A stretch of DNA of 64,000 nucleotides from a virus. A program made the translations under genes and the position numbers. The notes beneath the pieces were generated by a model that saw only the letters and a list, made by a program, of their open reading frames with translations, was not told the origin of the DNA and ran no database searches. Below are positions 28,944 to 57,213 of the stretch, piece after piece; the first letter of the stretch is position 1, and each line of letters begins with the position of its first letter. The stretch is from positions 128,447 to 192,446 of the IMG/VR virus record IMGVR_UViG_3300028840_005911; one strand, given 5' to 3'.

Positions 28944-29327
28944 TTACACCTCGTAAAACAGGTACCATCGACCATCTTTTTGCCTGATGTCTACGATATC
29001 AGACGCGGCTGCGAAGATGGCCGCCAGGGTAAGGTTGAAGGTGGCATCGTCGTTACCTGAGCCTCCGGTGACCGACACCGGGTTGGTCGGGTCGGTGGTG
29101 TACGCCCCCTCGAATTCTACCGCGATACCATCGATGACTTTTCCGGTCTCGCTTGTGACCTTGAGGGTAGCAGCAACCTCAAACCCTCCACCGACTACGG
29201 TCAGGATGTCGTCCACTTCGTACCCGTTCCCGCCAGCCACTATGGCCGCGTTGGTAACCTCCTTGGCGGCGCCGGCGAAGGTAGTGAGGGCATCCGGAGA
29301 CTCGAATTGAAGTACTCTTACTGCCAT
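28944..29327 (-). CDS. small structural protein with inserted beta domain
   Basis: Ends resemble the 44-aa ORF at 14127; central GGNGY..DDILTV.GG...GGSG..ATF module. Confidence 0.65.
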   Translation of the reverse strand: MAVRVLQFESPDALTTFAGAAKEVTNAAIVAGGNGYEVDDILTVVGGGFEVAATLKVTSETGKVIDGIAVEFEGAYTTDPTNPVSVTGGSGNDDATFNLTLAAIFAAASDIVDIRQKDGRWYLFYEV

Positions 29328-30832
29328 GTCCTGATCCTTTCGAGTTCGTTGAAGAACGCTGCCTTCTCTATGTCACCTTTGTCCAGGTGCCATTCTTTGA
29401 ACCTGGGCTGGAACATGGCTCCCAGGCTACCGTCCTTCTTTTTGAATACCTTCCTAGCTTTCACTTTGGCTACTCTCCCTACGTAGGCATCTGGGTCCTC
29501 AAGCATGCGCCGCCCCTCCTCGTGTTTGAACCCACCTACCTGTCCTACTATAGGACCATCCACCGTCCATGAGTAGCTCACTGACCCGGCCCTGTCCAAG
29601 GTCTTCCCGTCCTTGCTGACCGCTGGGTTCACCTTCCGCGCCACGACGTCGAAGTCGGGCAGCACCTTAGCCTTCACGGGCTTACTGGTCTCACCTTTAC
29701 TGACAAGGACTACCCCTTCATCGGTGAGAGGATACTTCTTAGACTTGACGGCATTGAGTAAACCAATCTTCTCCAATGCGCCGATAACCATCCTCGGGAG
29801 AGGGAGCTCTTCTATCTCGTCCGTCACCTTCTCGAGGATCTTTATCTTCTCCTCGAAAGGTTCCTTGCTGACATCTTTCCCTTTGTACTTGAGGACATTG
29901 AATGGGATTGGGACCAGCTTGATACCTGACTTGGCCTGCTCTTCTCTGCTCCTCCACACCTTGGCATTGAGAAGGCCACCAAGCTGCTCTGCGGGTATGG
30001 CCTTGCCGTCTTTCAACCTGACCCCGATGGTCTCGGCAAGCAGGAGCGTGTTATCGAGCTCCTTCGGCACCTTCTGTTTCAGAAGCTCCGGCATCTTGTG
30101 GGTGTGCTCGATGAGTCCAGTCTTCGCCCTCTTAGCAACCCGGTACGAGAAGGCCCGGGGCGCCCTCCCAGCCTTCAGGTCCAAGACGGTGTGGGCCCCG
30201 TCGAACTTCGGCATCATCACCTGGGTGTCGTCGGTGGGGTCGACGGAGTCGATGTCGATCTCTTTGTAGGTCTCCTTACCCGAAGGGATGTCAGGCCTCT
30301 TGGACCGGGTCTGTGTCTTGTTGTGGAGGAACCACTTCCCCTTGCCATCGGTCCGTATCGAGTACTCCTCTGGCTGGTCGCCCTCGTACAGGTTGAACCT
30401 GAGCTTGGTCTCCTTGTCCTCCCCCGGCTTGGCGTGGTAGACCTCAGCCTTCTCCCGCCTCCCCTTTTTTACTACACCTTTTCCGTAGGTCGTTGTGATG
30501 GGACCCGTGTAGTCCATGTACGGGACCTCGTGGTCGAACGTGGGGATAACCCTCACGGACTCCCCAGGTCCGGGAAGATCAGACCGCTTCGGCATTACGA
30601 ACGAGTGGGCGATACCGGTCTCCGGGTTGCCAAATCTGATGTCGGTATGTAGCCCGGCCCTCTCAGCAAGGTGTGGGTGAGCAGAGAACTCCCATGTCTC
30701 CGGCTCGGTTACAGTCGGGAGCCCGCTACGGTGTCTTGCAGGAACCCCTGGCCCAAGATAGCCCTTCTCGTAGTGAGGCTTCTCACCTCGAGTGACAGCC
30801 TCGGCAGCCTTGGACAGGAGGTACAGATTCAC
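29318..30832 (-). CDS. LigD-type 3'-phosphoesterase fused to ATP-dependent DNA ligase
   Basis: PE motifs Hx7HTDIR and FDHEVPY; ligase motif I PKFDG, III LAETIG, IIIa FNVL, IV EGVVL, V KAK; OB domain ending QPRFKEWHLDK. Confidence 0.82.
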   Translation of the reverse strand: MNLYLLSKAAEAVTRGEKPHYEKGYLGPGVPARHRSGLPTVTEPETWEFSAHPHLAERAGLHTDIRFGNPETGIAHSFVMPKRSDLPGPGESVRVIPTFDHEVPYMDYTGPITTTYGKGVVKKGRREKAEVYHAKPGEDKETKLRFNLYEGDQPEEYSIRTDGKGKWFLHNKTQTRSKRPDIPSGKETYKEIDIDSVDPTDDTQVMMPKFDGAHTVLDLKAGRAPRAFSYRVAKRAKTGLIEHTHKMPELLKQKVPKELDNTLLLAETIGVRLKDGKAIPAEQLGGLLNAKVWRSREEQAKSGIKLVPIPFNVLKYKGKDVSKEPFEEKIKILEKVTDEIEELPLPRMVIGALEKIGLLNAVKSKKYPLTDEGVVLVSKGETSKPVKAKVLPDFDVVARKVNPAVSKDGKTLDRAGSVSYSWTVDGPIVGQVGGFKHEEGRRMLEDPDAYVGRVAKVKARKVFKKKDGSLGAMFQPRFKEWHLDKGDIEKAAFFNELERIRTWQ

Positions 30833-35398: not shown

Positions 35399-38300
35399 TC
35401 AATAGAGCCAGGGCTCTTCTGGGGTCCCATCAGAAAACTCTTTTCCGTAGGCCATACCGGGGATCGGGTGGGTCCCATGAAGCATCGACTTCCACCCCTC
35501 TGCGGAGGCATCGAGCACGGTCTTCTTCAGGTTGGTCGCCTGCATCCTTGCCAACCAGTCCTGATGCATGTCCTGCGACAGGACTGCTGTGCCCCGTAGA
35601 ACAGGGTGGTACTTCACTGGCTTCTTGGCCCCCTCCACACTGTTGTACGACCTTATCTTGGAGGTTGGGGCCAGATCTCCACGGAGGTACTCCGGGTGGT
35701 CTCCGGGGTCTACCACCTGACTGAGGTTGGTTAAGGACCTAACGAAGGTCTCTATGTTCCTCCGCTTCACCGGGGACACGGCATCGTAGACGCCCTTCAC
35801 CTCGTCGGTGATGTACCTCTGGACTGTCCCTATGTTGGTGAGGGGCAGGAGCTCGAGGGGATTCTTGGGGCCTGTGGAGAGTGCGTCGCCCTTTTTCACC
35901 TCAGCGCCTCTTCGAACCGTAAGCTCTCGTCTCGAGGGAACGAAGTGTCTCTTGTCTTCTACGTACACATTGTGCCCGCCGGCCGGGTCTTTCTCTATCT
36001 TCCTCACCTTCCCGCTGCTCTGGGACAAGGTGGCCGCACCAGGGAGGGTCTTGGGGAACTCGAGTAGCTGTTCTATTCTCTTGAACTGGTTCCCTGCCGT
36101 CGTGCTCTTGGCCCCTACGATGGACCCCTCGTGGAAAGCGGACATGGAAAGTTGGGACATCGGCTCTCCCATAGCCTGGGAAGCTATGACTCCAAGGTTG
36201 GTACCCTTCGGGTATACTTGACCGTCAGGACCAAGACCATAACACTTCGAACACAATCCCTCACCGTGCGCGCACTTCAATGGCGTCCTTACTGGTATCT
36301 CACGAATCTTGTTGTTCTTCAACCTGTTGATGAGATCCATGTCAACGAGTGTCCCTGCGGGGATTACCCCCTTGTCCTTACCGACCTTCGATCCCAGGTT
36401 GACATCCTTGGCCGTGAACCTCCCAAGCGCATCTCTGTCGTTGATTGAAAGGGCGATGCCCTTCGCGGTCCCGCAGTCATCCGAGGTAACCATCTGGTTC
36501 ATGGTGATGTTCATCATCTTTTTGGACATGAACCCGGGGTCTTTGGTCTGTTTAGTCCTCCCGATGATGCCCATGCGAGCCCCATGCATTGAGGCCCAGT
36601 AAGACCCTACGTCCAGACCTTCGGAGAAGGACTTGTTGATTGGTGTGAGGACAGGCTCACCTTTGGAATCCACTACCAGGGTGGGACCGAAGACGATCTG
36701 CTTGAACTGGTTCCAGTTGCCCCGGGCCCCGGACCGGATCCAGTCGTACATTCTGTTCTGTGACCTGTCCAACTGCGCCTTGCCCCTGTCTGAGATATCC
36801 TTCGCCGCGTTGGCATATATCTTTGCCAGCTCCTTTTCGAGCCTGGCCTTGTTGGATATCCTCCTCTTCGCGGACTTGGCATCCTTGTCGGCTCTTCCGA
36901 GCCTGAGATCGCGGTACCGAGTGTCGGCAACGAAGTCGTCCAATCCAACCGAGAGACCTGTGGAGTAGAAGTTGCCAAGGTCTTTGTACCTGCCTGCTGT
37001 CCCTGAGAAACTTTTCAGGTCTTCAGACGCTACCCTGCTAAGGAGATCGTGGAGCGTCTTCTTGTCCAAAACGGTCTTCTTGTCCGTAAGCAGCTTCTCG
37101 TCACGGAGATCTTCGGGAAGGGCCTGGTATAGCATGAGCCTGGCCACCGTCGTCTCCTTAGCAGGTGCTCCCAGCTTCTCGAGCTCAGAGAGCTTTGAGA
37201 GCTCACGGATCTTTATGAGGTCAGTCTCTGCTATCTCACCTTTCTGAACAGCCCTGGCAGCATCTGCGGCCGTGTCGTACACCTTACCGGTTCTCTTCCC
37301 AGTCTCGGTCAACTTGTACAATCCAAGCATGGCCTCCTGCCGGGGCGTGTACATCAACAACCCGGTTGAGGGGCTGAACAGGTTGTTGGAGGGCATCATC
37401 TTCACGGTCTCGTCTACGGCTTGCTGGCTTACGGGAACGAAGGCCGACATGGTATCACCGTCGAAATCCCCGCCAAATCCTGAAGTAACTAAGGGGTTTA
37501 CCTTAATTGCTCTACCTTCGGTGAGTACAGGTCTGAATGCCTGGAGACCGTACTTATGCAGGACTGGGTCTCGCTTCATCATCACCGGGCGATCCTTGAC
37601 CACATTCTCCAACGCCCGGATGGCGATTGAGCTGTTGGTCCTAATCTTGTCCAAGGCTTCTCCGGGAGTGTAGCCCATCCTCACCAGGTTGGCGGATACG
37701 AAGGGCTTGTAGATCTCCATGGCCGCCTTTCTTGGCAGTCCTACTTCGTCTAGTGCGAGGGAGGGCTCAGGGACAATTGTCCCTCGAGCCGACATATCCT
37801 GCCGCCGGCCGATGATGTTCTTCTGGAAGAATGCCTCCTTCGGAGACTTTCCGCCGGACTCTCCCCCCAGGGTGGAGGCGATGCCGCTGAGCTGACGTCC
37901 ATACTGGGTCTTGCCTGTGAGAGCAAGGGCCCTCATACCATCGTACAAAGAGGACACCAGCTTGTGGCGCTCTTCTTCCGGAAGACCTTTTGGGAAGTCA
38001 CGCAGTTGATCGTTGACCTTTCCGATACCCTTGTATAGCCCATTGAGATCGTCGTAGTTGATATTCCCGTTGTCCATGATCGACACGGGTCGCATAGCCG
38101 GAGGCAGCACAGGTATCATGGAAGATGTGTAAGCCTCAACGGGGTTGAGCTCAGCCTTCTTCAGAGCCCGGAGGTATTTGATCTTCTTGTTTGCCTCGTC
38201 TAGCTTGGCACCTCTGAGATCCTTTACCTTCCCCTCCAGGGTTTTGAGATCCTTATCGACATCCACCTTCTTCAGCAGGTCGACTATTACGGGCGCTCCG

Positions 38301-41300
38301 GTCTTCCCGTCTACGTCCTTCGTTCCCTCGAGCAGTCCTTGGAAATCCTTTGCCTTCAGACCGGTAAGGGTTCTGATGGGCTTCTCGAATATCGGAGTAG
38401 GCATTCTTTCCGCCAGTGGGAGGTGGGACCACTTGTCTCCCAGCCGTCCCTGAGGCCACGTGGTGCCTGTCACCTTGGGATCGAACAGTCCTCCCTTCTC
38501 TGGGATGATGGATCTTCCTCGACTGGTGCCCTTGAACGCCTTGCCGGCATCTTCTATGGGGCCGTTGCTCATCTTGAGAACTTCATCGTCGGTCAGTGGG
38601 GACAGCACCAAGGAGTTTCCATCCTTGGTCACATCGACCCCCATACCCTTTAGGTAGCCTTCGAACTTCTTATAGACGAACGGTATCTTCGGAGGGGGGA
38701 TGGGCTCCCCATTTTGAAGAGCGAACCATACATCGTCGTTGAGATCAGACTTCATGGTCTGCATCTCCCTGATGTTGTGCCGTGCACCATGGGCCAGCAG
38801 AGCGTACAGACCCATGGCATCCATGCTCTGACCGCTCGTCGGACCGCCACCCTTCGGGGTCAGGTTGACGTCGTACTTGTCCCGGGACCGTGCCTGAAGC
38901 TTCTTCTCCGCCACGTGGTGGAGCTTCAGGATGTACTGCTTTCCGGTCAGGACTTTCTCGTACTTCTTGTTGGTCTTCGGATCTACAAGGTCCTCGGTGT
39001 CTGACAGGCCGTGCTTCTTGAGCTCAGCCTTCATGTTCCTGACATAGTCCTTGTTGTCGGGGTCGAAGTTGTCCGCGACATAAGGCTTGCCGGTCTTCTC
39101 AGCTATCTTGGATGCGGCAGTCTCGAGTACCTGGCCGAGGTTCATTCTGCTGGGGATACCAGTCTGGTTGAGCAGGACCTCCATGTGGTTGCCGTCTTTA
39201 TCCTGCGGCATCTCTCGGTCGGGGATGATGGCGGTGATGATGCCCTTGTTGGCACTCCTGCCCACGATCTTGTCACCAATGATTGCCGGAGAGTCGGCGC
39301 GGAGATAGACGTTAGTTTGCTTCCCGTGCTTCACTACCTTTACCACCTTAGCCGGGTAGTCGTGCTCCCACGTTATGGGCCTCGGCTTCACCGGGGTGAT
39401 AGATTTCTTGGGGAAGAACAGGTTGAGCATCTTCTGCTCTGGGGTGATCTCTTCCACCTTCAACTGACCGACCAAGAGATCTCCCGGTTCTACTGTCTCA
39501 CCGACTTTGATAACGGCATCGTCGTCCAGCTTCTTGACCTGGTCCTTGGTGTAGGCGCCTGCTGTGTGTGCGGTGAACTTCTTCTTGTCGAGGATGACAT
39601 TCTTCTCGGCAGTCACCCCCTCACGATGAAGATGCTGCGAGGTGAGCTTCTCAGCTGCCGACTCTGAGATGACTATCCCGTCCTCGTAGTTGTACCCCCT
39701 GTAAGGCATGTAGGCCGTCTTGAGAGAGGTACCAAGGGCAAACTTGCCGCCCTTGGTGAAGTTCGAGTCTGCTACGACCTGACCCTTCTTGACCTCGTCG
39801 CCTTTCTTGACCAGGGGGTTGGAATTGAGGAAGCTCTTGTTCTCATTGAGCGGGAAGTTGTCGTAGAGCTGGACCTCGTAGCGCTCTCCATCCTTTCCAC
39901 GAATGATTATCCCGTCGTCCTTGACCTTCTCTACCTTTCCTGACACCGGGGAGCTGTGAGAGTTGAACCTCCCAACAGCCTGTTCGAAGGTAAGGTTACC
40001 TCCGCCCTTCACCTGGACCAGAGGCTCCTCCCTATGCTTCAGGGAGACGGCCTGCTCAGCCTGCTTTGAAGCCATCATGGCCCTGGTACCTTGGGTGTTC
40101 TGCAGGAATGGAATCATATTGGCAGAAAAGTCGAACATCCCCTTCGAAGACTCGAGGATGTAGTCTACCTGCCCTGGCACCAAAACAGAGATGTTCCCCT
40201 CCCTATCAGAGACCTTCACCTCTTTCTCCCTGGGGACAGGTTGGCCCCCAACCCACTTGTACTGGTCCGGGAAGGCCAGGTTGGAGTGGAGGGCAGTGTA
40301 GGGGTCGATCTCTTCGTACTTCTGCTTCTTGGTATTGTAGGCCCGGATCTTCAGAGTGTTGCCATCCTTCTTTGCGCCCAGAGCCATCTGCAAGATGGTA
40401 CCGGTTCTCTCGCTCTCCGGGGTTTGAATGCTGTCGATGAATCCGATGTGGCTGTTACTGACACCTTGCGCCTCCAAAGTTAAGGCGTGGGCGCTCATGA
40501 TACCGTGCTCACCTCCAATTGTGGTCTTCCTGTTGCCATTCAGGAACCCCATCGGGTTGAGCTGCTCTGGTCTCTCAGAGATGACTGAGTTGGTGAAGAA
40601 CCTCTTGATCTGACCTCCGAATAGCTCCGGGTTGACTACGGTCCGCACCTTGTTCGACTTATCGACTACGGTCTGCAGTTTCCCCGATATCTTCCTGCGG
40701 ACATCCTTACTGAGCCTCTCGGTGAGAAGGTCCTCAGTGGAGTAGACATCCTTGAACTCGAGGGAGTCTCTATCGTCTGGCTCATCTTCCTGCCTCGAGA
40801 CCTTGAGGATCTTGTGTGACCCGGTAAGGAGCGCCTCGCCTGTTACCTTGTTGAAAGGTTTACCGAGGGTGATCTTCGTGGAGTCCGGCCTGAGAGCTGT
40901 ACCATCGAAGGCCTCAATGATCTTTTTCTGTGCCTCCTTCAAGTCGGTAGGGGCTTTCCCAGTGATGGCGCGGTACATCTTACGGATGTCGTTCTCAGGT
41001 TTTGCGGCCCTGTTGGCGGTCAGAAGCTCCTTACCCCACCTCTTCTCGATGTCATCATCGGATACCCCCAAGGTCTTCAAGATAGGGTACAGACCGATTG
41101 ACGAGCCACCGTATTTGATGCTCATCTTTTTGGTCTCGGGGCTGAACTCCATCGAGAACCCGCGCCCTTCCACGCCCTTGGCAAGGTTCCACTGAGAGGC
41201 GAGCTCACCGTTCTCCTTGATCCTGGTATAGACCCCGGACTTCAAACGCAGTTGGTTGGCCACCTGCCATTCATTGCCATCCACGATGTAGGTATACCGG

Positions 41301-41590
41301 CGGGTGATCTTGGGGATGCTCCCCACGTTTACAGTCTGTCTGTCCTTGATCTTACCGGTCTTGTTGTCCACCAGAGAGACGTCTGCACGGATTGGTACCG
41401 TCCATGACCTGCCCTTTACCTTCGCATCTGTCTGGGTACGGATGTCGTCGATGTCCTTGTTGTCGTCCACCCACACCTTGTGGGCCACGACCGTGTTCTT
41501 TGCGCCCTTGACCGGGAAGTATTCCTCTACGGTCTTGGACATCCGGTCCTTGAGAACATTGAACGCACTTTCAGGGTGGATGTAGGCCAT
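35399..41590 (-). CDS. single-chain two-barrel RNA polymerase (beta-beta' fusion)
   Basis: beta: GDKIVGR, GIPSRMNLGQ, YILKLHH, GGQ-like TSGQ. beta': GRRQDMSARGTI, RDPVLH, DFDGD, bridge helix HGARMG, trigger loop QAMGEPMSQLSM..FH. Confidence 0.95.
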   Translation of the reverse strand: MAYIHPESAFNVLKDRMSKTVEEYFPVKGAKNTVVAHKVWVDDNKDIDDIRTQTDAKVKGRSWTVPIRADVSLVDNKTGKIKDRQTVNVGSIPKITRRYTYIVDGNEWQVANQLRLKSGVYTRIKENGELASQWNLAKGVEGRGFSMEFSPETKKMSIKYGGSSIGLYPILKTLGVSDDDIEKRWGKELLTANRAAKPENDIRKMYRAITGKAPTDLKEAQKKIIEAFDGTALRPDSTKITLGKPFNKVTGEALLTGSHKILKVSRQEDEPDDRDSLEFKDVYSTEDLLTERLSKDVRRKISGKLQTVVDKSNKVRTVVNPELFGGQIKRFFTNSVISERPEQLNPMGFLNGNRKTTIGGEHGIMSAHALTLEAQGVSNSHIGFIDSIQTPESERTGTILQMALGAKKDGNTLKIRAYNTKKQKYEEIDPYTALHSNLAFPDQYKWVGGQPVPREKEVKVSDREGNISVLVPGQVDYILESSKGMFDFSANMIPFLQNTQGTRAMMASKQAEQAVSLKHREEPLVQVKGGGNLTFEQAVGRFNSHSSPVSGKVEKVKDDGIIIRGKDGERYEVQLYDNFPLNENKSFLNSNPLVKKGDEVKKGQVVADSNFTKGGKFALGTSLKTAYMPYRGYNYEDGIVISESAAEKLTSQHLHREGVTAEKNVILDKKKFTAHTAGAYTKDQVKKLDDDAVIKVGETVEPGDLLVGQLKVEEITPEQKMLNLFFPKKSITPVKPRPITWEHDYPAKVVKVVKHGKQTNVYLRADSPAIIGDKIVGRSANKGIITAIIPDREMPQDKDGNHMEVLLNQTGIPSRMNLGQVLETAASKIAEKTGKPYVADNFDPDNKDYVRNMKAELKKHGLSDTEDLVDPKTNKKYEKVLTGKQYILKLHHVAEKKLQARSRDKYDVNLTPKGGGPTSGQSMDAMGLYALLAHGARHNIREMQTMKSDLNDDVWFALQNGEPIPPPKIPFVYKKFEGYLKGMGVDVTKDGNSLVLSPLTDDEVLKMSNGPIEDAGKAFKGTSRGRSIIPEKGGLFDPKVTGTTWPQGRLGDKWSHLPLAERMPTPIFEKPIRTLTGLKAKDFQGLLEGTKDVDGKTGAPVIVDLLKKVDVDKDLKTLEGKVKDLRGAKLDEANKKIKYLRALKKAELNPVEAYTSSMIPVLPPAMRPVSIMDNGNINYDDLNGLYKGIGKVNDQLRDFPKGLPEEERHKLVSSLYDGMRALALTGKTQYGRQLSGIASTLGGESGGKSPKEAFFQKNIIGRRQDMSARGTIVPEPSLALDEVGLPRKAAMEIYKPFVSANLVRMGYTPGEALDKIRTNSSIAIRALENVVKDRPVMMKRDPVLHKYGLQAFRPVLTEGRAIKVNPLVTSGFGGDFDGDTMSAFVPVSQQAVDETVKMMPSNNLFSPSTGLLMYTPRQEAMLGLYKLTETGKRTGKVYDTAADAARAVQKGEIAETDLIKIRELSKLSELEKLGAPAKETTVARLMLYQALPEDLRDEKLLTDKKTVLDKKTLHDLLSRVASEDLKSFSGTAGRYKDLGNFYSTGLSVGLDDFVADTRYRDLRLGRADKDAKSAKRRISNKARLEKELAKIYANAAKDISDRGKAQLDRSQNRMYDWIRSGARGNWNQFKQIVFGPTLVVDSKGEPVLTPINKSFSEGLDVGSYWASMHGARMGIIGRTKQTKDPGFMSKKMMNITMNQMVTSDDCGTAKGIALSINDRDALGRFTAKDVNLGSKVGKDKGVIPAGTLVDMDLINRLKNNKIREIPVRTPLKCAHGEGLCSKCYGLGPDGQVYPKGTNLGVIASQAMGEPMSQLSMSAFHEGSIVGAKSTTAGNQFKRIEQLLEFPKTLPGAATLSQSSGKVRKIEKDPAGGHNVYVEDKRHFVPSRRELTVRRGAEVKKGDALSTGPKNPLELLPLTNIGTVQRYITDEVKGVYDAVSPVKRRNIETFVRSLTNLSQVVDPGDHPEYLRGDLAPTSKIRSYNSVEGAKKPVKYHPVLRGTAVLSQDMHQDWLARMQATNLKKTVLDASAEGWKSMLHGTHPIPGMAYGKEFSDGTPEEPWLY

Positions 41591-41660
41591 GCCATCTCCT
41601 TAACCGGCGCTGCGTGGCACCTCGAAGACTCAACACGCCATAAATTCTACGAGATTTCTC

Positions 41661-41668
41661 GGTATAAG
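41661..41668 (+). promoter_or_regulatory. GGTATAAG candidate phage promoter
   Basis: Upstream of a plus-strand island; matches motifs at 48709 and 6213. Confidence 0.45.
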
Positions 41669-41716
41669 AGAAGTGTATAGGAGAGTCATACTACTTTTCT
41701 TCAGACGAAAGGAGGT

Positions 41717-41857
41717 ATGCGAGTGACTTCTGGACCGAAATCCACGGAGATTTTGGAGCACGACATCGACGATCTGTTGAGCTGCACGGAGGATGAGGAA
41801 GAAGAGATGGATGACGAAGAGAACCAACAAGAAGAAGAAGGAGAGCAAGATGGTTAA
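41717..41857 (+). CDS. 46-aa very acidic peptide missed by the ORF track
   Basis: AAGGAGGT RBS; MRVTSGPKSTEILEHDIDDLLSCTEDEEEEMDDEENQQEEEGEQDG. Confidence 0.6.
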   Translation: MRVTSGPKSTEILEHDIDDLLSCTEDEEEEMDDEENQQEEEGEQDG

Positions 41858-41929
41858 GCTGTTCATTTTCATGTTTCTAGCGGGGTTCTGTAAGGCGGTA
41901 CTGAACATCCTCGAGGATGAGGTGGCACA

Positions 41930-42286
41930 ATGCCATGCTGCTTCTTGTGCGGGGAGGCCGTAGAGGACGAAATCCTCCGACTCCAACTTGGACTGGTCCA
42001 GTACAAGAAGAGGGGTCCGATATTCCTCGCAGATACTTTTGAGGATGGGTCCGCAGTCAAGTGGATCCATCCCAAATGCGCACCTGGGTGTTACCCCCAC
42101 CTCATGCGCTACGACTACTGCGCTATCTGCGGTCACCAATTCTACGAGGAAGAGTCGGCCCTCTTCATAGAAGCTGGGGAGTTCCAAGGATGGAGAAGGA
42201 GGTCGAAGTTCGACGGGGAATCCGGGGGCGTGCTGCACTACATCTGCGCAGAGGAAGAGCTTGGATTTGACCTATGGCGGGAGTGA
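41930..42286 (+). CDS. Cys/His-rich protein with two repeated Zn-binding modules
   Basis: CFLCG...WIHPKC and CAICG...LHYIC. Confidence 0.65.
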   Translation: MPCCFLCGEAVEDEILRLQLGLVQYKKRGPIFLADTFEDGSAVKWIHPKCAPGCYPHLMRYDYCAICGHQFYEEESALFIEAGEFQGWRRRSKFDGESGGVLHYICAEEELGFDLWRE

Positions 42287-42561
42287 TACCAAAGAAGGCG
42301 GGCCCCAACAGTGTGGGGTGCGAGAACTGCGGAGAGGCATGTGAAGATGAAGTAATCCTGTTCGTCCACATAGTAGAGGGGGAGGAGACCGAACTACCAT
42401 TCTGCAGCGCCGAGTGTTGGCAAGAGTACTTCGACGTACTGCCGGCCACAGAGCTCAAAGAGAAGTATCGCGAAGAGGCGAACTTCATCTACAACCAAGT
42501 CTGTCCGGCATGCAAAGCCAGGTTCAGGAAGAGAGTGTACAAGGAGGTGAATGGGGGTTAG
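42274..42561 (+). CDS. small Zn-finger protein (TRASH/MYM-like)
   Basis: CENCG...FCSAEC plus CPAC. Confidence 0.6.
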   Translation: MAGVIPKKAGPNSVGCENCGEACEDEVILFVHIVEGEETELPFCSAECWQEYFDVLPATELKEKYREEANFIYNQVCPACKARFRKRVYKEVNGG

Positions 42562-45500
42562 ACCATCGCGGCTTCAGGGCCGCGTCTCGGGGGCTTATTC
42601 TCTGGAAGGGGGAGAGCGGCAGAGTTCGTATGAGCCCCGGACCTGGAATTGAGAACTTGAACCACCAGGCTATAGAGCTGGGGATTTCCTTGACGGAGGT
42701 TCGCCAGCTCAGCCTGTTTCTGGTTATCGGGGAGAGCATCGAGCCAAGCAACAATCCTGTTGGCTATGTCCAGCACGCTCATCTGTGGGCCGGAAGCGTC
42801 CAAAGGTGACTGGGCGGCCTCCATAGGCGGGGGCTGCTCTTCTTGAGGAACCATATCAGAGACAGGGGGTACCATACCCATTCGGTTGGCCATCCCCTGC
42901 TCTTGGACCATCATCTGCCCCATTGCGGCGGGGCTTGCGGCACCAGGTTGTCCGGCAGCCATCATACCCATCTGTTGCATCTGATCAGCAGCTTGTGGGT
43001 CCATGGGTGGCTGTCCGGCGGCCTGGGCCTCGAGCATGGACTTCTGTGCTCTTAGCTGGTACTTCTGGATGACCATCTGAGACTCACCCTGAATGGTGGC
43101 CTGGCCGATAGCCTGCTGTCTTTGAGCCTCGAGCATCTTGACACGCTCGTCGTCCATTCTCTTCTGCTCGGCATCGAGATCCCAGTCGGTGTCCTCCATG
43201 AGAGACCTGTCAGAGAGCTTGCCTGCCTGGTTGAGCTGCAGATGGAACGCGCTCCTCTGGAGGTCGTCTGCCATCTTGAACTTCTTATATCTCGGGGCGA
43301 CCGTACGCCATCCCATGAATGCGGCGATCTTCGGGATGATGAAATGCTTAACCATTCGGAGGCGGTCTGACTTCTCGTCCAAGAACTTGTTCTCCAGCAT
43401 ACGGAGGGAGACATTGGATCCCGAGAAGCTGAGGCCACCGAAGACGAGCTCAATCGGAACACCCATTCCGGCGACGATGTGCTCGAGCCAGACACGGTAC
43501 TCCTGGGAGAGGAGAAGAGCCTTGCCATCACCGCCGAGGGTCTGCTGGTTGACAGGGATAGGCATTATGGGGATGTAATTGTTGTCCAAACGCCATCTGA
43601 TGAGCTCCCGCTCCATCTTGTTGCGCCAGCTCCCTAGGTTGACTGAGCTGTACACATCTGAACTTGGCCCCGCAGACTGAGGGAACAGGATGCGAAGAGG
43701 AACTATATGTTCAACTGCTATGCTATTTTTCGTAGCTACCCCAGGGCAACAGAAGGTTGTATCCTCGGTGATCTTAAAATCGATGTAAGTGTCCTCTTCT
43801 ACTTCCTCTATGGCACACACCCTGGTGGCGAAATATTCCTTCCAAAAGAATCCACTTTTACCGGAAGTCACTTCGATGGTAGTAGCTCTGTCTTTGCTCC
43901 AAAGATCCAACATCCTGTCCTTGGACGGGCCGGTTAACATGACATGGAAATGCTCATTTCCACCTTTGATGGTTCTGCCACTGGGAAGAATACTGTCTTT
44001 AGTGGTGAAAGATCGGACGGTGGCTATACACCCTAAATGTAGACACATCCTGTAGGAATCATAGGCCAGGTCTCTACTAGAGGTAGATAGTGTGGCGGAT
44101 TTTTCCCTGACATGTCCATCGGCTTCGAACAGCCCCTTCAGAAACGCAGCTTTCACTTCGTCTGAGGCGTGCAAGATATGCTCGGGGACCTTCTTGTCTG
44201 TTGCTGTCCCAGGTACCAACCCTTTAATTATGTGTCGGGCAATAGTATTTGATAATACGACCGGGCTCACCGCCACATTCTTTTCTTCTAAGGTGCAGTC
44301 CACTTCGAACACCCTGTGAACGGCTGATATAAGCTCTTCGGTGTAGTAACTCGGGTCATCACTTCCTATAGAGAACTCGACGTGCCGCGCACCACAGCTA
44401 CCATCCCCAGCGTACCACCCAAGAATGTACCCTAGATCCTCGTCCATTTTCAGTTTGGACGGGAACCGGTTAGGTAGCCTTCCTTCTTTGGTGTACCTCT
44501 TGGCTGTCTTTTCTGGAGTAGTGTTTCCAAGCTCCTTACCGGACTCCAACCTCTCGAAAGCTTCGGCGGTCTCAAGAGAGCAGCCTGGGTAAACATAGCT
44601 GTCTGTACCCTTAATGCCGGACACCTCTGAAACATCTATCTCGGTAACGTCTGTACGTAGCTCCCTTGGGTAAAGAACATAATCCCCTACGGAGATCTGT
44701 CCTGCGGGGCATACGTACTCCTCGTAGAGGTGAGGGTTCCTCAAGATCACCGTAGAAATCTGTTTCTCCTTCGTATCCTTTCTCCTGTTCACATCGTTCC
44801 TGCCTATAGTTAGCACAGGATGGTTTGGAGAATAGACCGATGGAAATGCCCTTAGGCCAGTAGGAGTTATTTTTACACCTATCTCGTCCTCCCTGGAATC
44901 CCTATACCACTTGTCCTCAACAGGCTGCCACCTTCCCCTGTGGGTACGAACGATATCCCCAACCTTCACGTCATCGGCAGTTTTCAGACCATCGATGGTC
45001 TCGATTAGGGTTTCAGGGGAGACGCACTCGTTCGCTTTTTTCAGAACCTGTAGGTAGAAGGTATCCTTGAGCACGGGGAGGATCATAGGAAGCCCCCAGC
45101 CTTTGTCCTTCTGTGCGATGCTGGGCCGCTTCATGTGGTACAGATTGTCTTTGCTGAAGAGCAGCGACTTGTTGGACTTGACAGCATCGATGAAAGGCTG
45201 CGCCACCCTCTCGATGGTCTCTTTTTTACCTAGCCGGATACCGTTGGCCAGGTTCGGGGGAAGCGTGAAGTAGTATCTGTTCTCCCCGGTGGCTTCGTTG
45301 TGCTCGATGGTGATGTACTCTGGGTTCCACCTGATGAGACGGATGTCCCGCACAGATCGGACCGGCATATCCACCACTCTGTACGGACCGTAACGGCCAC
45401 AGGAGCATTCCCCTTCGAACTTGAAGTCCCTGAAGACGTACTTGGTCCTCTCCACCTTGGTCTGCTTCCCACACGATTTGCACACGAGATACTTCTGGAA

Positions 45501-45887
45501 CGGGAAGTGGATAGAGATAAATGCGTTACCGTAGGCGTGGTAGTCGATCCCTGTCTCGATCTCGAACTGCTTGAACTCGAGGATGTCGTTGAACAGGAAT
45601 TCCCACTTCGTCCGTAAGGCAACGCTGTCCGAGTCGAGAATGAGATCGGTGACCGGGTACTCGGCCATCTTGTAGACGATGGCGTTGATGATCGGGTTGG
45701 TCAGGAAGTAATACCTGCACCACCTGAGCATTGCCTTGAACGAGCTCGGCAGGTAGGTGTGGGCCAGGTCGAAGAACGGAGATGGATACCTTACCGCACC
45801 AAGGGCCTCACTAGTCAGAGACCTACCACTGTTACGTGAGAACCTGAAGGACCCCGCCGGTCCGAAGTCGATTGGAGTAACACTCAT
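42558..45887 (-). CDS. portal protein containing an intein
   Basis: Portal-like segments (NPIINAIVYKMAEYPV, YGNAF, LYHMKRP..WGLP, VPIELVFGG); Gln/Met/Pro-rich tail; about 675 aa after splicing. Confidence 0.8.
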   Translation of the reverse strand: MSVTPIDFGPAGSFRFSRNSGRSLTSEALGAVRYPSPFFDLAHTYLPSSFKAMLRWCRYYFLTNPIINAIVYKMAEYPVTDLILDSDSVALRTKWEFLFNDILEFKQFEIETGIDYHAYGNAFISIHFPFQKYLVCKSCGKQTKVERTKYVFRDFKFEGECSCGRYGPYRVVDMPVRSVRDIRLIRWNPEYITIEHNEATGENRYYFTLPPNLANGIRLGKKETIERVAQPFIDAVKSNKSLLFSKDNLYHMKRPSIAQKDKGWGLPMILPVLKDTFYLQVLKKANECVSPETLIETIDGLKTADDVKVGDIVRTHRGRWQPVEDKWYRDSREDEIGVKITPTGLRAFPSVYSPNHPVLTIGRNDVNRRKDTKEKQISTVILRNPHLYEEYVCPAGQISVGDYVLYPRELRTDVTEIDVSEVSGIKGTDSYVYPGCSLETAEAFERLESGKELGNTTPEKTAKRYTKEGRLPNRFPSKLKMDEDLGYILGWYAGDGSCGARHVEFSIGSDDPSYYTEELISAVHRVFEVDCTLEEKNVAVSPVVLSNTIARHIIKGLVPGTATDKKVPEHILHASDEVKAAFLKGLFEADGHVREKSATLSTSSRDLAYDSYRMCLHLGCIATVRSFTTKDSILPSGRTIKGGNEHFHVMLTGPSKDRMLDLWSKDRATTIEVTSGKSGFFWKEYFATRVCAIEEVEEDTYIDFKITEDTTFCCPGVATKNSIAVEHIVPLRILFPQSAGPSSDVYSSVNLGSWRNKMERELIRWRLDNNYIPIMPIPVNQQTLGGDGKALLLSQEYRVWLEHIVAGMGVPIELVFGGLSFSGSNVSLRMLENKFLDEKSDRLRMVKHFIIPKIAAFMGWRTVAPRYKKFKMADDLQRSAFHLQLNQAGKLSDRSLMEDTDWDLDAEQKRMDDERVKMLEAQRQQAIGQATIQGESQMVIQKYQLRAQKSMLEAQAAGQPPMDPQAADQMQQMGMMAAGQPGAASPAAMGQMMVQEQGMANRMGMVPPVSDMVPQEEQPPPMEAAQSPLDASGPQMSVLDIANRIVAWLDALPDNQKQAELANLRQGNPQLYSLVVQVLNSRSGAHTNSAALPLPENKPPRRGPEAAMV
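43725..45026 (-). mobile_element. intein with LAGLIDADG endonuclease (434 aa)
   Basis: Starts C(VSPET); block B HPVL; LGYILGWYAGDG and AFLKGLFEADG; ends ATKN followed by Ser; more AT-rich than its flanks. Confidence 0.92.
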
Positions 45888-46684
45888 CGTGCACCGTAAT
45901 ACTTGGCGATTGTGCCCAGCTGCTCACCAGCCTCTTCAGGCGTAGGAGCCTCCGCAGCTTGTTGTAAAGAAGCACCGGCCCTCATCCTATCCAAAATCCT
46001 GCCGGCGGCCGACCCCCCTCTATGAAGGCCATACCACAGAGCCATGGGGGCGAGCATCCCGCCCGTCCCGGTACCAAGAAGCCACCCTGCAGCTCCTCCG
46101 GTCTCCCCAAGGAGCCTCTCAATGGTTCCCCCTTCCCCTGTAGGGGTCGGTTCCTTGGCTCCTACAATACTGGGGATGGCGCCGGCGGTGAAGCCTGTGA
46201 ACATACCCTTCTCCCCGACCGGGAGGTACTTCGTTGCCCGGGTCTTCCCTGTCCACCCACGGCGAGAGAGCTCCTCAGCCAAGGCCTTGACCCGGCCGGG
46301 TCCTTGTTCCCCACGGATAATGGACATGAGGGGAGTCCCTGCAGGTTGCTGAAGGTGGCTGGCTGATTGGAGACGCAGAGCCGGAAGCTTATACCAGGGT
46401 GTCCTTGTCCCATGTGCAGTGCGGGCCAACTCACTAACCAGTTCCTTCTTCGTTCTGGGATCAGCCATGGGGGCCATACTTCTCCACCCCCTGGCCATGC
46501 CCTCGAAAGGATGCTGAACCCGGTGGGCGAGCTCTTGAAGACCACCTGCGCCACCCTTAGCCGCCTTCCCCCTGAAGATACCCTTTAGCTTACCGACCAG
46601 TTTGGCTTTGTTTGCTGTCTTGGAGATGGACTCAGTCTCCTCGAAGAACCCGGAGAGCACAGTGTCATCTAGTGGGTGATCCAT
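45884..46684 (-). CDS. basic glycine-zipper protein with FFEETESISKTA leader
   Basis: Leader variant; two hydrophobic Gly-rich helices near the C-terminus. Confidence 0.65.
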   Translation of the reverse strand: MDHPLDDTVLSGFFEETESISKTANKAKLVGKLKGIFRGKAAKGGAGGLQELAHRVQHPFEGMARGWRSMAPMADPRTKKELVSELARTAHGTRTPWYKLPALRLQSASHLQQPAGTPLMSIIRGEQGPGRVKALAEELSRRGWTGKTRATKYLPVGEKGMFTGFTAGAIPSIVGAKEPTPTGEGGTIERLLGETGGAAGWLLGTGTGGMLAPMALWYGLHRGGSAAGRILDRMRAGASLQQAAEAPTPEEAGEQLGTIAKYYGAR

Positions 46685-47529
46685 GACTTGAGCTCCTCCA
46701 GCTGTTCCACCAACTGCTTACGCCGAAGCACCTGATACTTATAGGCTACCACAAGCTTCGCCGCTTGAACATCCTCGGGGATGGTCTCGTCGAGCTCGAG
46801 ACCCAGGTCATTTCTTAGCTCCTCGAATCTATCCTTGGCGGGCTCAGGATCTCGGGTGAGAAACTTCTCTATGTTTCTCCCCACATCTGGGGCAACGAAC
46901 CTCGAAGGCTTCCTGTCCAGAGGGTGCTCCCCGGTGAACCTTCCGACGCAAAAGTCACACCTGTTGTCGTCCAGGTCGTCGTAGTCCACAGTACCACAGT
47001 CCCGGCAATGGAACTTCGGTGCTGACAGAACAGTCTGTGCGAAGTCCAGGGGGTCGGGCAGGTAAGTGACCCCTTCATCGATGGCGCAGGCAGCCACGTA
47101 TCTCTCCACCTCGTCCGAGAACTTCTCCTTCTGAATGGAGTTGGCCATGTCCACTCCGGCCATGAGCTTCGACATAGTGCACTTCTGCCCGACGTCGAAC
47201 CTGGGTATGCAGTTGTTCAGAGCCTGGATAACCTTCTCGAAGACATGCCACTCTTCCCAGAACGCAGTGGACATACCCAAGGTGCGGACTGCCTGGATCT
47301 TATTCCAGTTGTGCTCGCTGATAGATGGAGCCCTAAACACATGAAGGATCTCTTTCTTCAGGGTCTCGGGCTCCCAGGCGAACCAATTGAAACCGAACTT
47401 CTCCATGAGGACCATGGAGAGGGCTACCGGATGTGCATCGTGGTAGCTGAAGAATCGGATGATGGGTTCAAGGGATGCTCGGACTGCGGCCGGAGCAGTG
47501 CGGGCATTGATACCCCACTTACTGCTCAT
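46669..47529 (-). CDS. hypothetical virion-module protein with Zn ribbon
   Basis: Start moved to MSSKW (ATG 47529, GAGGGG RBS); CRDCG...CDFC. Confidence 0.6.
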   Translation of the reverse strand: MSSKWGINARTAPAAVRASLEPIIRFFSYHDAHPVALSMVLMEKFGFNWFAWEPETLKKEILHVFRAPSISEHNWNKIQAVRTLGMSTAFWEEWHVFEKVIQALNNCIPRFDVGQKCTMSKLMAGVDMANSIQKEKFSDEVERYVAACAIDEGVTYLPDPLDFAQTVLSAPKFHCRDCGTVDYDDLDDNRCDFCVGRFTGEHPLDRKPSRFVAPDVGRNIEKFLTRDPEPAKDRFEELRNDLGLELDETIPEDVQAAKLVVAYKYQVLRRKQLVEQLEELKSWITH

Positions 47530-48628
47530 ACCCCTCTGACCCTCCCGAAGCGGACAGGTCCGCGCCCATCCGAGCGATGATCTTTTTCTGGGGGAGCGGC
47601 ATCGAGTTGAATACCCCCACCGGGTCCTTGGCGAACTCGCGTAGGATGTCGTCGGTGAAGATACGATACATGCCGCTCGCATGATTCTGGGCAAGGTTCT
47701 GCAGCTCACGGTCGGTGACCCTGTCTGCACCTTCCTCCCAAACGACCTTGGCGGTCTTGTCGATACCGAAGGTCGATGTCCAAGGATCTGGCACGGCCTG
47801 GTCCCACATGGAATCCAGGCCGTACCGCGTGTCGAAGACACGTAGGTGGTGGGCATAGTCATCAGGAAGGATAGAGGCGGACTTCTCGAACAGATCGTCC
47901 AGGAAGTCACGTTCCTCGGAGTGAGGGTCGAAGACGAGTTTCCTCATCTCCACTGCTTCTTTGCGTTGCTCTTCGCCGGCGTAGGTCTGGGACCCAGCCT
48001 CTTTGATCTTCTCATCGAGGGGGAACCCAACCTTGCCTGATTTCGCGGCGAGCTTCGTTGAGAACTGCCGACGCATCTCGGGATGCATCTGGTGCTGGTT
48101 CTCGAGGTAGTAACCCTGAGCCCTCTCGATGAGGTCCCAAGAGTTTATGGGGTAGAGCCTCTTCCCTTCCTTCGTGATGTAGCAGTAGTCCTCGTCGGAC
48201 TCGGGGGCGGCGACCTTCACCTTCGGTGTAGGCGACTGACCGGTGACGTCCACGATGTTGTCTCCGACGTCTTCCAGCTCAGCGGCCTTGGTCAGGGCAA
48301 CCGGAGGCAGGATACCATAGGTCACGCACTTCTCGACCAGGTTACTGGCCGCAGTCTTGATGGCATCGTCAGGCAGCTTGTCGCCGTGCTCCATGAAGTA
48401 CATGACCGAGATGGCTGTGGTCCCCGGGTCATGACATGCGAACTTGCGCATCATCTGACCACCATCGACCGCCACCAGGGCAAAGTCCTCGTTGGCCAGC
48501 TTGTTCTTCTCCTTGATGTCCGCCTCCTTGATGATGTCGGGAAGCGAGTCGACATCAGGGAACTTGGCCTTCAAAGTTCCACAGCGATCATCGTAAAAGT
48601 CCAGAACCACGCCTGCGTACTTGTTCAT
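47519..48628 (-). CDS. KxA-dense head protein, first gene of the virion module
   Basis: 369 aa with 12 KxA motifs by my count; GAGG RBS. Confidence 0.7.
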   Translation of the reverse strand: MNKYAGVVLDFYDDRCGTLKAKFPDVDSLPDIIKEADIKEKNKLANEDFALVAVDGGQMMRKFACHDPGTTAISVMYFMEHGDKLPDDAIKTAASNLVEKCVTYGILPPVALTKAAELEDVGDNIVDVTGQSPTPKVKVAAPESDEDYCYITKEGKRLYPINSWDLIERAQGYYLENQHQMHPEMRRQFSTKLAAKSGKVGFPLDEKIKEAGSQTYAGEEQRKEAVEMRKLVFDPHSEERDFLDDLFEKSASILPDDYAHHLRVFDTRYGLDSMWDQAVPDPWTSTFGIDKTAKVVWEEGADRVTDRELQNLAQNHASGMYRIFTDDILREFAKDPVGVFNSMPLPQKKIIARMGADLSASGGSEGYEQ

Positions 48629-48656
48629 AGTGCACCTCTCTTCGACATCAATTCTA

Positions 48657-48686
48657 AAGCTAACCGGTTTTGGTGGGGACAGTCAA
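48657..48686 (-). promoter_or_regulatory. sigma70-like promoter TTGACT-N18-TAGCTT
   Basis: Heads the virion module; followed directly by TAGAATT. Confidence 0.4.
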
Positions 48687-48708
48687 GGCGAAAATATTGG
48701 AAATTCTT

Positions 48709-48717
48709 GGTTATAAG
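48709..48717 (+). promoter_or_regulatory. GGTTATAAG candidate phage promoter
   Basis: AT-rich divergence point upstream of the replication module. Confidence 0.45.
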
Positions 48718-48754
48718 CAAACTAGAAGATACCACCGATTACGACGGAGGAAAT

Positions 48755-49153
48755 ATGGACTACGCGAGACAGAGTAGAATGCGATCATGCTTTAACGGAA
48801 CTATCGAAAGGAATTGTGGTACTTGCATTGCCCATCCGGACAACGGGGGCAAGTGCTGTTACGGGGAGAAGTTCGATCCTGAGGACCCGGAGTGTATCGA
48901 CTGCGTTCATTGTGGGGACTGTGAAGAGGAGTGCTATCAGCCAGACTACCGTATGGCCCGGCGGAGCAGGGTGAAGATCAGATCCAGGAGGGATCGGTCC
49001 ATTGCACGGGAGCCGGACGTCGTCAGCATCGAGAAGCGGGCGAATGCCGATAGTCGGATTCTACACCGGCTTTGTAAGGAGTTTATCTGGGGAATGGGGG
49101 TCGGAGGTTTCAAGTCTCTCTACGAGTACATGTCGAGAAATCGCTGGCCATAA
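48755..49153 (+). CDS. Cys-rich hypothetical protein (132 aa)
   Basis: GGAGG RBS before ATG 48755; the longer 48083 ORF call is antisense shadow. Confidence 0.65.
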   Translation: MDYARQSRMRSCFNGTIERNCGTCIAHPDNGGKCCYGEKFDPEDPECIDCVHCGDCEEECYQPDYRMARRSRVKIRSRRDRSIAREPDVVSIEKRANADSRILHRLCKEFIWGMGVGGFKSLYEYMSRNRWP

Positions 49154-49155
49154 CG

Positions 49156-49178
49156 CTATACATATACTATATGTATAG
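49156..49178. promoter_or_regulatory. perfect palindrome, candidate operator
   Basis: CTATACATAT-ACT-ATATGTATAG immediately upstream of the XRE gene RBS. Confidence 0.55.
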
Positions 49179-49191
49179 GACGAGGTGACGC

Positions 49192-49602
49192 ATGGAACTT
49201 GGAAAAATCATCACTGATATCCGTAAAGGTTCTCTTTACCCGAGGCGTAGCGATTTCGCCAAGAACATCGGTATCAGCCATGAGGGGCTCCGGAAGGTGG
49301 AGTCCGGTGCCCGCATTCCTCAGAAGGATACCCTGGACAAGATCCTGAACATCGGCGGGCTGCCGGACAGGGAAGCCGACAGGATCAGGCACATCAGAGA
49401 CCTCGAGCTGGCCAGACAGATGGACATCAACCTGGACTTCGACGACAATGAGATTCCTGATGCCGCCCTCAATGCGCTGTCCAAGAGCCTGACCAAGGAC
49501 CTGCATGAGTATCTCGAGGAAAACGAGTACGTCCTCCCTGAGGAGTGGGACACCGCCCTCGAGCTCATCTTCAGGGAGACTCTGGAGACCCACCTGAAAT
49601 GA
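49192..49602 (+). CDS. XRE-family HTH regulator
   Basis: RSDFAKNIGISHEGLRKVESGARIP. Confidence 0.85.
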   Translation: MELGKIITDIRKGSLYPRRSDFAKNIGISHEGLRKVESGARIPQKDTLDKILNIGGLPDREADRIRHIRDLELARQMDINLDFDDNEIPDAALNALSKSLTKDLHEYLEENEYVLPEEWDTALELIFRETLETHLK

Positions 49603-51080: not shown

Positions 51081-51465
51081 CGGCAGGACACTGATGGTAG
51101 TCACCTCAATGGCCGGGGACAAGTTCCTTGGGTACATCAACAGCCAAGAGGACATCATTCGAGAGAGGAGGGAGATCCACCTCTATGAGGTGCGACTGGT
51201 ATTCGAGAGGATGGAGAAGTTGACGGACAGAGAGGGTAACTCGGGTATCGTCAGGAACCTGACCCTCATGGCCATCGATGCCAATGCCAGCCCCCTGGAA
51301 CACACGGAAATCACCTACGCCACCATATACAAACCGGATGCGAAGTCTCTCCCGCACTGGCAGACAATGATCGACAGGGCAAAGGAAACAGAGATGGCCA
51401 CCCTCGCCATGGAGTCCGGTCTTCACCTCCCAGGAGCTCCGAACATTATGGGCAGGCAGCAATGA
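51064..51465 (+). CDS. hypothetical protein
   Basis: Coupled ORF, 133 aa. Confidence 0.6.
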   Translation: MEDQADGRTLMVVTSMAGDKFLGYINSQEDIIRERREIHLYEVRLVFERMEKLTDREGNSGIVRNLTLMAIDANASPLEHTEITYATIYKPDAKSLPHWQTMIDRAKETEMATLAMESGLHLPGAPNIMGRQQ

Positions 51466-52648: not shown

Positions 52649-52651
52649 CTC

Positions 52652-53116: not shown

Positions 53117-53118
53117 AG

Positions 53119-55019: not shown

Positions 55020-55022
55020 AAG

Positions 55023-57202: not shown

Positions 57203-57213
57203 CATCTAACCCG

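Follow-up and report, generated by a model that had tools for sequence, protein, structure and literature searches.

A one-chain RNA polymerase of the bacterial type, probably carried in the virion, encoded by an uncultured marine phage

The locus described here raises the question whether a phage can hold the catalytic core of a cellular-type RNA polymerase (RNAP) in one polypeptide, and what the gene for such an enzyme does among the genes for the virion. It lies in IMG/VR record IMGVR_UViG_3300028840_005911, the 192,446-bp genome of an uncultured marine phage that has direct terminal repeats and was judged complete; the final 64 kb of this record, referred to below as the window, is the stretch of DNA that was analysed. 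One open reading frame (ORF) of the window encodes a complete bacterial-type two-barrel RNAP catalytic core in a single polypeptide of 2,063 amino acids (aa). The overall explanation that we consider best, with a probability of roughly 0.7, is that of a one-chain core that does without alpha and is probably carried in the virion.

The evidence for the nature of the gene comes from several directions. It is preceded by a ribosome-binding site (RBS), AAGGAG, 6 nucleotides (nt) upstream of the ATG. Along the protein the Pfam domains follow in the order Rpb2_3, Rpb2_6 and then Rpb1_1, Rpb1_2, Rpb1_3, Rpb1_4 and Rpb1_5, and bacterial beta' chains of solved structure in the PDB match it from residue ~1086 to the end (E ~1e-115); among the PHROGs there are two matching families of 'unknown function', one for each half, together with weaker phage 'RNAP beta' families. 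When 93 family members were aligned with Salmonella beta and beta' joined end to end, the last residue of beta falls on aa 992 and the first residue of beta' on aa 993 of the window protein, which leaves a beta module that is slimmed (992 aa versus 1,342 aa in the enterobacterial beta). The bridge helix, the trigger loop, the equivalent of R425 and a flap-tip-like helix all align, as do both active-site lysines of beta (E. coli K1065 and K1073, in GDK...NKG; Rpb2_6, E 3e-58) and the double-psi beta-barrel (DPBB) of beta' with its DFDGD (aa 1375-1379; Rpb1_2, E 1e-23). For aa 901-2063 an AlphaFold2 model was built from an alignment of 61 sequences; it reached a mean predicted local distance difference test (pLDDT) score of 87.8 and a predicted template modelling (pTM) score of 0.85, and comparison of folds with Foldseek gave template modelling (TM) scores of 0.77-0.82 to bacterial beta' chains. 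The model shows the junction of the two modules as a helix that leads into a beta-hairpin (pLDDT 90-96), and therefore no flexible linker. Domain order, structural matches, alignment and model thus all agree with the original prediction, made from the sequence alone, that all beta motifs and then all beta' motifs are joined in this ORF without a break; the junction sequence that it quoted lies at aa 979-999.

The same alignment indicates what the enzyme has lost. The segment of beta' that corresponds to the N-terminal zinc finger (E. coli ~60-100) is reduced to a short loop between GGLFD and WSHLPLA, and this Cys4 domain is deleted across the whole family, including its members in Salmonella phage Arash and Vibrio phage D69. 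The second zinc site is retained (Table 1), so that the predicted loss of the one site and retention of the other are both seen. With respect to partner subunits, the whole genome holds one RNAP copy, and a genome-wide family search yielded no alpha (PF01000, PF01193/RNA_pol_L), no omega (PF01192) and no Sigma70_r2, in agreement with the earlier statement that the window has no evident alpha or sigma gene. Two proteins with a Sigma70_r4-type helix-turn-helix (HTH) domain are encoded outside the window (C1:81500-82393, with the match at C1:81950, and C1:95264-95773, with the match at C1:95411; loci L008 and L009), one of which also has an XRE-type HTH. In the core enzyme the C-terminus of beta and the N-terminus of beta' are adjacent, and a fusion is hence sterically possible. 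Given that no alpha or omega genes are present and that beta and beta' are covalently joined, it is plausible that the RNAP works without phage alpha or omega; the alpha-independence that had been proposed is upheld to that extent, although host alpha may still be used.

Table 1. Features of the RNAP gene and its surroundings, in window coordinates
Feature	Position (nt)	Strand	Basis
Single-chain beta::beta' RNA polymerase gene, 2,063 aa	35399..41590	(-)	ORF, Pfam, PHROGs, PDB matches
Beta module, aa 1-992; Rpb2_3, Rpb2_6, flap-tip-like helix	38615..41590	(-)	Pfam, alignment
GRSANKG, aa 777-783, aligned to E. coli beta 1068-1074	39242..39262	(-)	alignment
Beta/beta' junction, aa 979-999	38594..38656	(-)	alignment, AlphaFold2 model
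Beta' module, aa 993-2063	35402..38614	(-)	AlphaFold2 model, fold comparison
Site of the deleted beta' N-terminal zinc finger, aa 1033-1060, Cys-free	38411..38494	(-)	alignment
Catalytic loop GGDFDGD, aa 1373-1379	37454..37474	(-)	alignment
Hairpin-tip insertion, aa 1462-1479 (E. coli beta' ~555-571)	37154..37207	(-)	alignment, model, matrix
Second zinc site, C1706, C1773, C1780, C1783; at least 90% conserved	36242..36475	(-)	alignment
Portal gene, 1,109 aa, intein-interrupted	42558..45887	(-)	homology to annotated Arash portal
gpV/gp5-like baseplate spike gene, 374 aa	34267..35391	(-)	ESM Atlas, structural rows
TerL (PF05876)	25787-27595	(-)	
935-aa protein, weak head-protease match and InPase domain	20461-23268	(-)	PHROG, Pfam
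Major head protein (MCP), phrog_2522-type	15814-16938	(-)	

The RNAP is not an isolated case. In the protein database more than 120 clusters of homologs of 2,030-2,110 aa were found at 44-58% identity, many of them on contigs of 130-200 kb; IMG/VR adds dozens of loci, and no description of the single-chain form was found in the literature searched. Many homologs are interrupted by inteins, in some cases within DFDGD or GRHGNKG itself, where a simple motif search misses the motif. Such interrupted proteins, with LAGLIDADG, Hom_end or Intein_splicing domains, often reach 2,400-3,000 aa (P0013, P0021, P0037, P0044, P0104, P0112 and others); further intein-bearing RNAP loci are L004, L018, L027, L029, L044 and L063. 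A megablast search with 20 kb of the window against a phage collection returned zero matches.

The closest cultured relatives are the Salmonella phage Arash and the Vibrio phages D69, D148 and D181, at 31-34% identity over the whole length. They resemble the window phage in three respects: the fusion of beta to the N-terminal portion of beta', the loss of the zinc finger and the position of the gene after that for the portal. In contrast to the one continuous ORF of the window, however, their beta' breaks at the tip of a hairpin, with inserted ORFs or homing endonucleases in between, so that the enzyme is encoded by two genes, one for beta plus beta'N (1,525 aa) and one for beta'C (606 aa); in addition they encode region-2 sigma factors, whereas none was found in the window genome. 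The annotation of Arash labels the pieces 'beta' and 'beta'', without mention of a fusion (PMC10585845). In D69 (L001, 16551-17190), D148 and D181 the RNAP genes are parted only by two tiny ORFs or a homing endonuclease. This arrangement in the Vibrio phages points to a mobile element whose invasion gave rise to the gene split at the hairpin tip. In a FastTree phylogeny, the deep branches of which are provisional because of the program used, the split forms make up one clade (99% Shimodaira-Hasegawa-like support) apart from the clade with nearly all full-length fused forms, and the window RNAP belongs to a five-member clade with 100% support.

Within this family the window copy stands out by its active site. 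Motifs were counted in the 121 relatives of at least 1,500 aa: the catalytic motif reads NADFDGD in 108, GADFDGD in 7 and SADFDGD in 2, and the beta motif reads GRHGNKG in 97 of the 121, whereas both GGDFDGD and GRSANKG are unique to the window genome. The two replacements that had been noticed at first sight (GGDFDGD for NADFDGD and RSANKG for RHGxKG) are thus present and align with the motifs in question. All three metal-binding aspartates of the catalytic loop are retained, with G at the positions of both N458 and A459; in GRSANKG the lysine K1073 is retained, with S at the position of H1070 and A at that of G1071. Eight residues ahead of the catalytic loop the window has V-N (aa 1364-1365) where the family keeps I-H. 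The asparagine N458 of E. coli touches the ribose of the incoming nucleoside triphosphate (NTP), which makes an altered sugar discrimination a reasonable possibility. Rifampicin cluster I has diverged as well (G at the position of H526, T at that of S531 and E at that of D516), and from these known resistance positions we would predict the enzyme to be insensitive to the drug.

The gene stands between the genes for the portal and a spike-like protein, inside the virion module, and the homologies of its neighbours and their common strand confirm the place that it had been given at the outset. The same-strand order runs portal, RNAP, spike-like protein, TerL, protease-like protein, acidic scaffold-like protein and MCP. 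The spike gene starts 7 nt past the stop codon of the RNAP gene, and the two are adjacent and co-oriented in the relatives examined; its product resembles Phage_base_V/gp5 spikes (ESM Atlas feature score 0.95-0.96, with Mu gp45, VgrG and gp5 among the structural rows). For the protein that follows it (663 aa) there is a weak lead only, to gpD/VgrG. In relatives the order is a leader-bearing small protein, the portal, small divergent ORFs, the RNAP, a spike-like protein of ~390 aa, proteins of ~670, 300 and 185 aa, and TerL, and this order recurs in L003, L004 and L012-L014; in the cultured Vibrio phages and Arash the portal, a small ORF and the RNAP come in the same succession. The portal intein (~430 aa, Hint plus LAGLIDADG) occupies about aa 288-720, i.e. 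about nt 43728-45026, with Hint_2 at aa 288-329 and LAGLIDADG_3 at aa 577-626; it opens with C-V-S and closes with K-N, followed by S, and its flanks align to the portals of Arash and D69.

Mass spectrometry (MS) of Arash virions bears on the question of packaging: Gp206, the homolog of the window RNAP, was the most-detected protein (3,516 spectra), ahead of the MCP (1,333) and of Gp216, the other piece of the Arash enzyme (1,210), and a sigma factor was present (PMC10585845). In view of these data, of the conserved arrangement of portal, RNAP and spike and of the operon that the RNAP gene shares with the spike gene, we consider it likely that the RNAP is packaged in the particle. The virion-packaged enzyme of the original prediction thereby gains indirect support, from Arash and from synteny; the spectra are those of a phage with the split form.

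The original prediction further held that a segment of the RNAP at about 37165-37205 resembles the leader of head proteins and might serve as a packaging tag that is cut at maturation. The segment, LSKLSELEKLGA (aa 1464-1475, nt 37166-37201), contains ELEKLGA and sits at the tip of the hairpin at which the genes of the split relatives break (in Arash at window aa 1462/1463 and in D69 at 1465/1470). Most of the family has a tight two-residue turn there, whereas in the subclade of the window 10-35 additional residues are inserted, with a length and a sequence that differ between members; the E. coli protein also has an insertion there, but one of another kind and unrelated. In the model the loop forms a short helix (aa 1469-1474) at pLDDT 65-69 between strands at ~90. 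The alignment check proposed for ELEKLG, surface insertion or conserved core helix, thus ends on a variable surface loop of low confidence, and the idea of a tag therefore survives the refutation test that had been set for it in advance.

The leader itself can be described as two hydrophobic residues, D/E-E, L, E/Q/T, 0-3 residues and K-x-A, a pattern found in at least 8 ORFs of this genome and kept in orthologous small proteins of relatives at 45-58% RNAP identity. In these small proteins it may be a capsid-targeting or propeptide signal. Small proteins that bear it are encoded in the window at ~2894, 10929, 19561, 28900 and 46642 (all on the minus strand), elsewhere in the genome at C1:51605, 52108 and 52986, and in relatives at L004:4136, L012:6103, L013:16096 and L014:5648 and 16178. 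The N-terminus of the RNAP has no leader, the leader-like motif being internal. To score it, a 7-mer matrix was derived from 18 N-terminal leaders, none of them from an RNAP, after six regular-expression hits had been dropped by hand as non-leaders. With this matrix ELEKLGA scores 10.8 bits and ranks first among the 2,057 positions of the window RNAP, which bears out the resemblance. In the 54 homologs whose loop measures 8 aa or more, where the loop makes up 0.9% of the positions, it holds the top hit in 7, one of the top 3 in 19 and one of the top 10 in 33; the counts come from related homologs and so lack independence. Across the 54 homologs the loop, otherwise free, retains a hydrophobic-x-K-x-(A/G/S) core. 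We looked for covariation of the loop motif with leaders encoded in its own genome and saw none.

We also considered whether a small leader gene directly after the RNAP gene replaces the loop in phages that lack the latter. Such a gene is present in L013, L014, L016, L038 and L042 and in 0 of 6 loop-bearing genomes, a pattern that is not significant because ~15 loop-less genomes are without it too and the cases cluster phylogenetically. The leader genes in those five, which encode 119-143 aa, directly follow or overlap the stop codon of the RNAP gene (e.g. L013:16096-16527 and L014:16178-16570).

Several other features of the region deserve mention. Longest-ORF gene calling misleads in this genome of 55-60% GC: for instance, a 577-aa plus-strand ORF (15340-17073) overlaps the genuine MCP gene. 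Likewise, a 202-aa ORF between portal and RNAP (41630-42238, minus strand) was judged spurious, as it is of low complexity and real small acidic plus-strand genes with an RBS are found there. These divergent genes (41600-42560, with an RBS and an ATG near 41713) are arranged as in relatives, and they imply a divergent control region of ~120 nt ahead of the RNAP gene. A scan for sigma-70-type promoters in stretches 1-20000, 41400-42700 and 46000-64000, with the body of the RNAP operon outside the scan, showed no enrichment over shuffled sequences (4 versus 7.1 expected, 7 versus 4.2, and 0 near the RNAP start), and the candidate promoter words GGTATAAG (2 versus 0.48 expected, a count of 2 being reached in 7 of 100 shuffles) and TAGAATT (5 versus 2.8) were not enriched either; no promoter class is claimed. 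In the 935-aa protein the protease-like match (phrog_18299, E 1.5e-5) covers aa 107-248 and is accompanied by a strong InPase domain (PF18823) at aa 448-566; the protease-like part is ~40% identical to D69 gene 0270, and its region aa 40-300 had no match in PDB or Pfam. The InPase domain is typical of injected polyvalent or DarB-like proteins. An EndoVII-like protein (15222-15707, minus strand) adjoins the MCP gene, and a weak ATP-dependent DNA-ligase-like protein (29318-30832, minus strand) lies within the structural block; its counterpart in relatives is of the LigD_N/ligase kind, and relatives have RNase HII at this place.

Some of the results weigh against a one-chain, alpha-less and probably virion-carried core. 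The window RNAP keeps 262 of 271 near-invariant columns, and its 9 deviations, as compared with a median of 2, include several near the active site, so that an altered or reduced activity is possible. No region-2 sigma was found in the genome, which leaves the specificity factor hypothetical. The Arash preparation scored 116 'virion' proteins, ribonucleotide reductases included (PMC10585845), and the abundance of Gp206 is therefore not proof of packaging. Finally, most of the family is without the hairpin insertion, and the loop can thus not be a general route of packaging. If the first of these points is taken to its extreme, the window copy would be crippled, the loss of the equivalents of N458/A459 and H1070 abolishing normal NTP handling; the number of deviations and the uniqueness of both motifs among the 121 relatives fit such a view. 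Yet the frame is intact over 2,063 codons, the terminal branch is of median length (0.40 versus 0.41), all metal-binding aspartates and both lysines are retained, the position of N458 is G, S or A in relatives too (the 7 with GADFDGD, the 2 with SADFDGD, and Arash with A), and the gene is the only RNAP in a complete genome, at a word depth of ~16 without variants. We regard a crippled enzyme as very improbable. With its open frame, an unexceptional branch length and a clean assembly, the window copy is better read as having a remodelled active site than as decaying. The assembly was checked on a 2.5-kb stretch that contigs from two runs carry without any difference; these two DNA runs, whose contigs are identical in length, possibly represent a single data set from which the window itself came, and they do not count as independent support. 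No RNA data set was listed for the stretch. The place of the gene among structural genes could, on the other hand, be merely historical, the RNAP being a non-virion polymerase for middle or late transcription inside the cell. The presence of ligase-like and EndoVII-like genes and of the InPase domain in the same block agrees with this, as do the obvious cytoplasmic enzymes in the Arash 'virion' proteome and the fact that the sole RNAP of the genome must serve intracellular transcription anyway. Nevertheless, the adjacency of portal, RNAP and spike is kept across lineages at 44-58% identity and that of portal and RNAP even in Arash and D69 (~32%), Gp206 exceeds the MCP in spectra, and a location in the spike operon ill fits an enzyme that is needed before the late genes turn on; we therefore consider an exclusively intracellular role unlikely.

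With respect to the loop, the choice is between a function and a by-product. If it is functional, its leader-like helix would target the RNAP to the core of the prohead and/or be cut by the head protease, and we find this possible but on the whole doubtful. The top rank of ELEKLGA, the persistent core in the homologs, the low pLDDT, the location exactly at the natural gene split and the protease-like domain encoded in the module all speak for it. However, the loops do not keep the stretch that is best conserved among the leaders (two hydrophobic residues and then two acidic ones), the matrix holds only ~10 bits and was applied to non-independent homologs, neither the Arash clade nor the greater part of the family has the loop, the motif showed no covariation with same-genome leaders, and both the function of the leader and the fold of the protease are themselves putative. 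Equally tentative is the corollary that the cut would yield beta-beta'N and beta'C pieces equivalent to Gp206 and Gp216 of Arash. Still less likely, to the point that we would not expect it to hold, is the combined scenario in which an internal copy of the leader recruits the RNAP to the prohead, the head protease converts it into an Arash-like two-piece enzyme, and the remodelled active site (GGDFDGD, GRSANKG and H to N at aa 1365) changes the selectivity for the sugar or base of the nucleotide. The motif may instead be a by-product of a lineage-specific insertion at a permissive hairpin tip, where lysine, hydrophobic and small residues begin the return strand, a possibility to which we give slightly less than even odds. 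It accounts for the conserved residues directly preceding the conserved TTxGR strand, for the unrelated insertion of E. coli at the same spot and for the fact that loop-less relatives are the majority, but sits less well with the first rank in the window and with a rank of 3 or better in 19 of 54 homologs, as compared with ~1.4 expected if positions were interchangeable. Of the packaging tag and maturation cut, what stands at present is an exposed loop with the best leader match of the protein; the loop is absent from most of the family, and a role in targeting or cleavage is putative.

The one-chain, alpha-less and probably virion-carried enzyme that we favour can be pictured as follows. A slimmed beta passes through the structured hairpin into a beta' without N-terminal zinc finger. 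The covalent fusion would substitute for the alpha dimer as assembly platform, and hence the enzyme should work without phage alpha or omega. A sigma-like specificity factor is probably still used, because the flap-tip-like helix and the clamp coiled-coil are retained; the two region-4 HTH proteins are candidates. As the only RNAP of the phage, produced from the operon that also contains the tail-spike gene, beside the portal gene, it would probably be packaged and enter the cell with the DNA. There it would begin transcription with no need of the host enzyme and probably without being inhibited by rifampicin, after which newly made RNAP would take over later transcription. The ELEKLGA loop is an exposed, lineage-specific addition, exactly where the cultured relatives break the gene, with a possible use in capsid targeting or as protease site.

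Such an enzyme would be a natural minimal self-assembling RNAP of the multisubunit type, and as such a probe for the roles of alpha, omega and the zinc domain as well as a tool for expression from a single gene. The window copy in addition represents a natural experiment on the supposedly invariant asparagine of NADFDGD and histidine of GRHGNKG. If the enzyme is packaged, the virion-RNAP strategy extends to a large new group of phages.

How, then, does this RNAP relate to known systems? Fusions of the C-terminus of beta to the N-terminus of beta' exist in cells (RpoB-RpoC of Helicobacter and Wolbachia) and have been engineered in E. coli; these fusions are full-size, retain the zinc finger and assemble with alpha2 and omega. 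The one-chain, alpha-less and zinc-finger-less form of the window is a variant of the phage-encoded cellular-type RNAP. Jumbo phages of the phiKZ/AR9 type have multisubunit-type RNAPs without alpha, one set of which is packaged and starts infection (PMC7598289, PMC7824862), but theirs consist of 4-5 polypeptides in two paralogous sets, are far more divergent and use no sigma, as opposed to the single fused copy described here. The metagenomic Caudoviricetes lineage (mReC) that the original prediction named as a precedent is, as published, not this family. It likewise comprises uncultured tailed phages with homologs of cellular-type beta and beta', but every entry in Supplementary Data 2 of Weinheimer and Aylward (2020) has separate ORFs for beta (~900-1,563 aa) and beta' (~887-1,391 aa) (PMC7481178), and its MCP (PF07068, gp23-type) and TerL (PF03237) differ from those of the window (phrog_2522-type and PF05876). 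The crAss-like gp66, YonO and the tape-measure-fused RNAP of P23-45 share the single polypeptide with two DPBB barrels and the delivery by the virion, yet apart from the barrels they retain little, and sequence comparison scarcely detects them, whereas the window protein keeps nearly the whole beta/beta' set. Phage RNAPs of the cellular type are thus known mainly as enzymes in many pieces (phiKZ, AR9) or as barely recognisable giants (crAss, P23-45); in contrast, hundreds of uncultured phages of 130-200 kb encode a near-complete beta/beta' core in one chain of 230 kDa, without alpha, omega or zinc finger.

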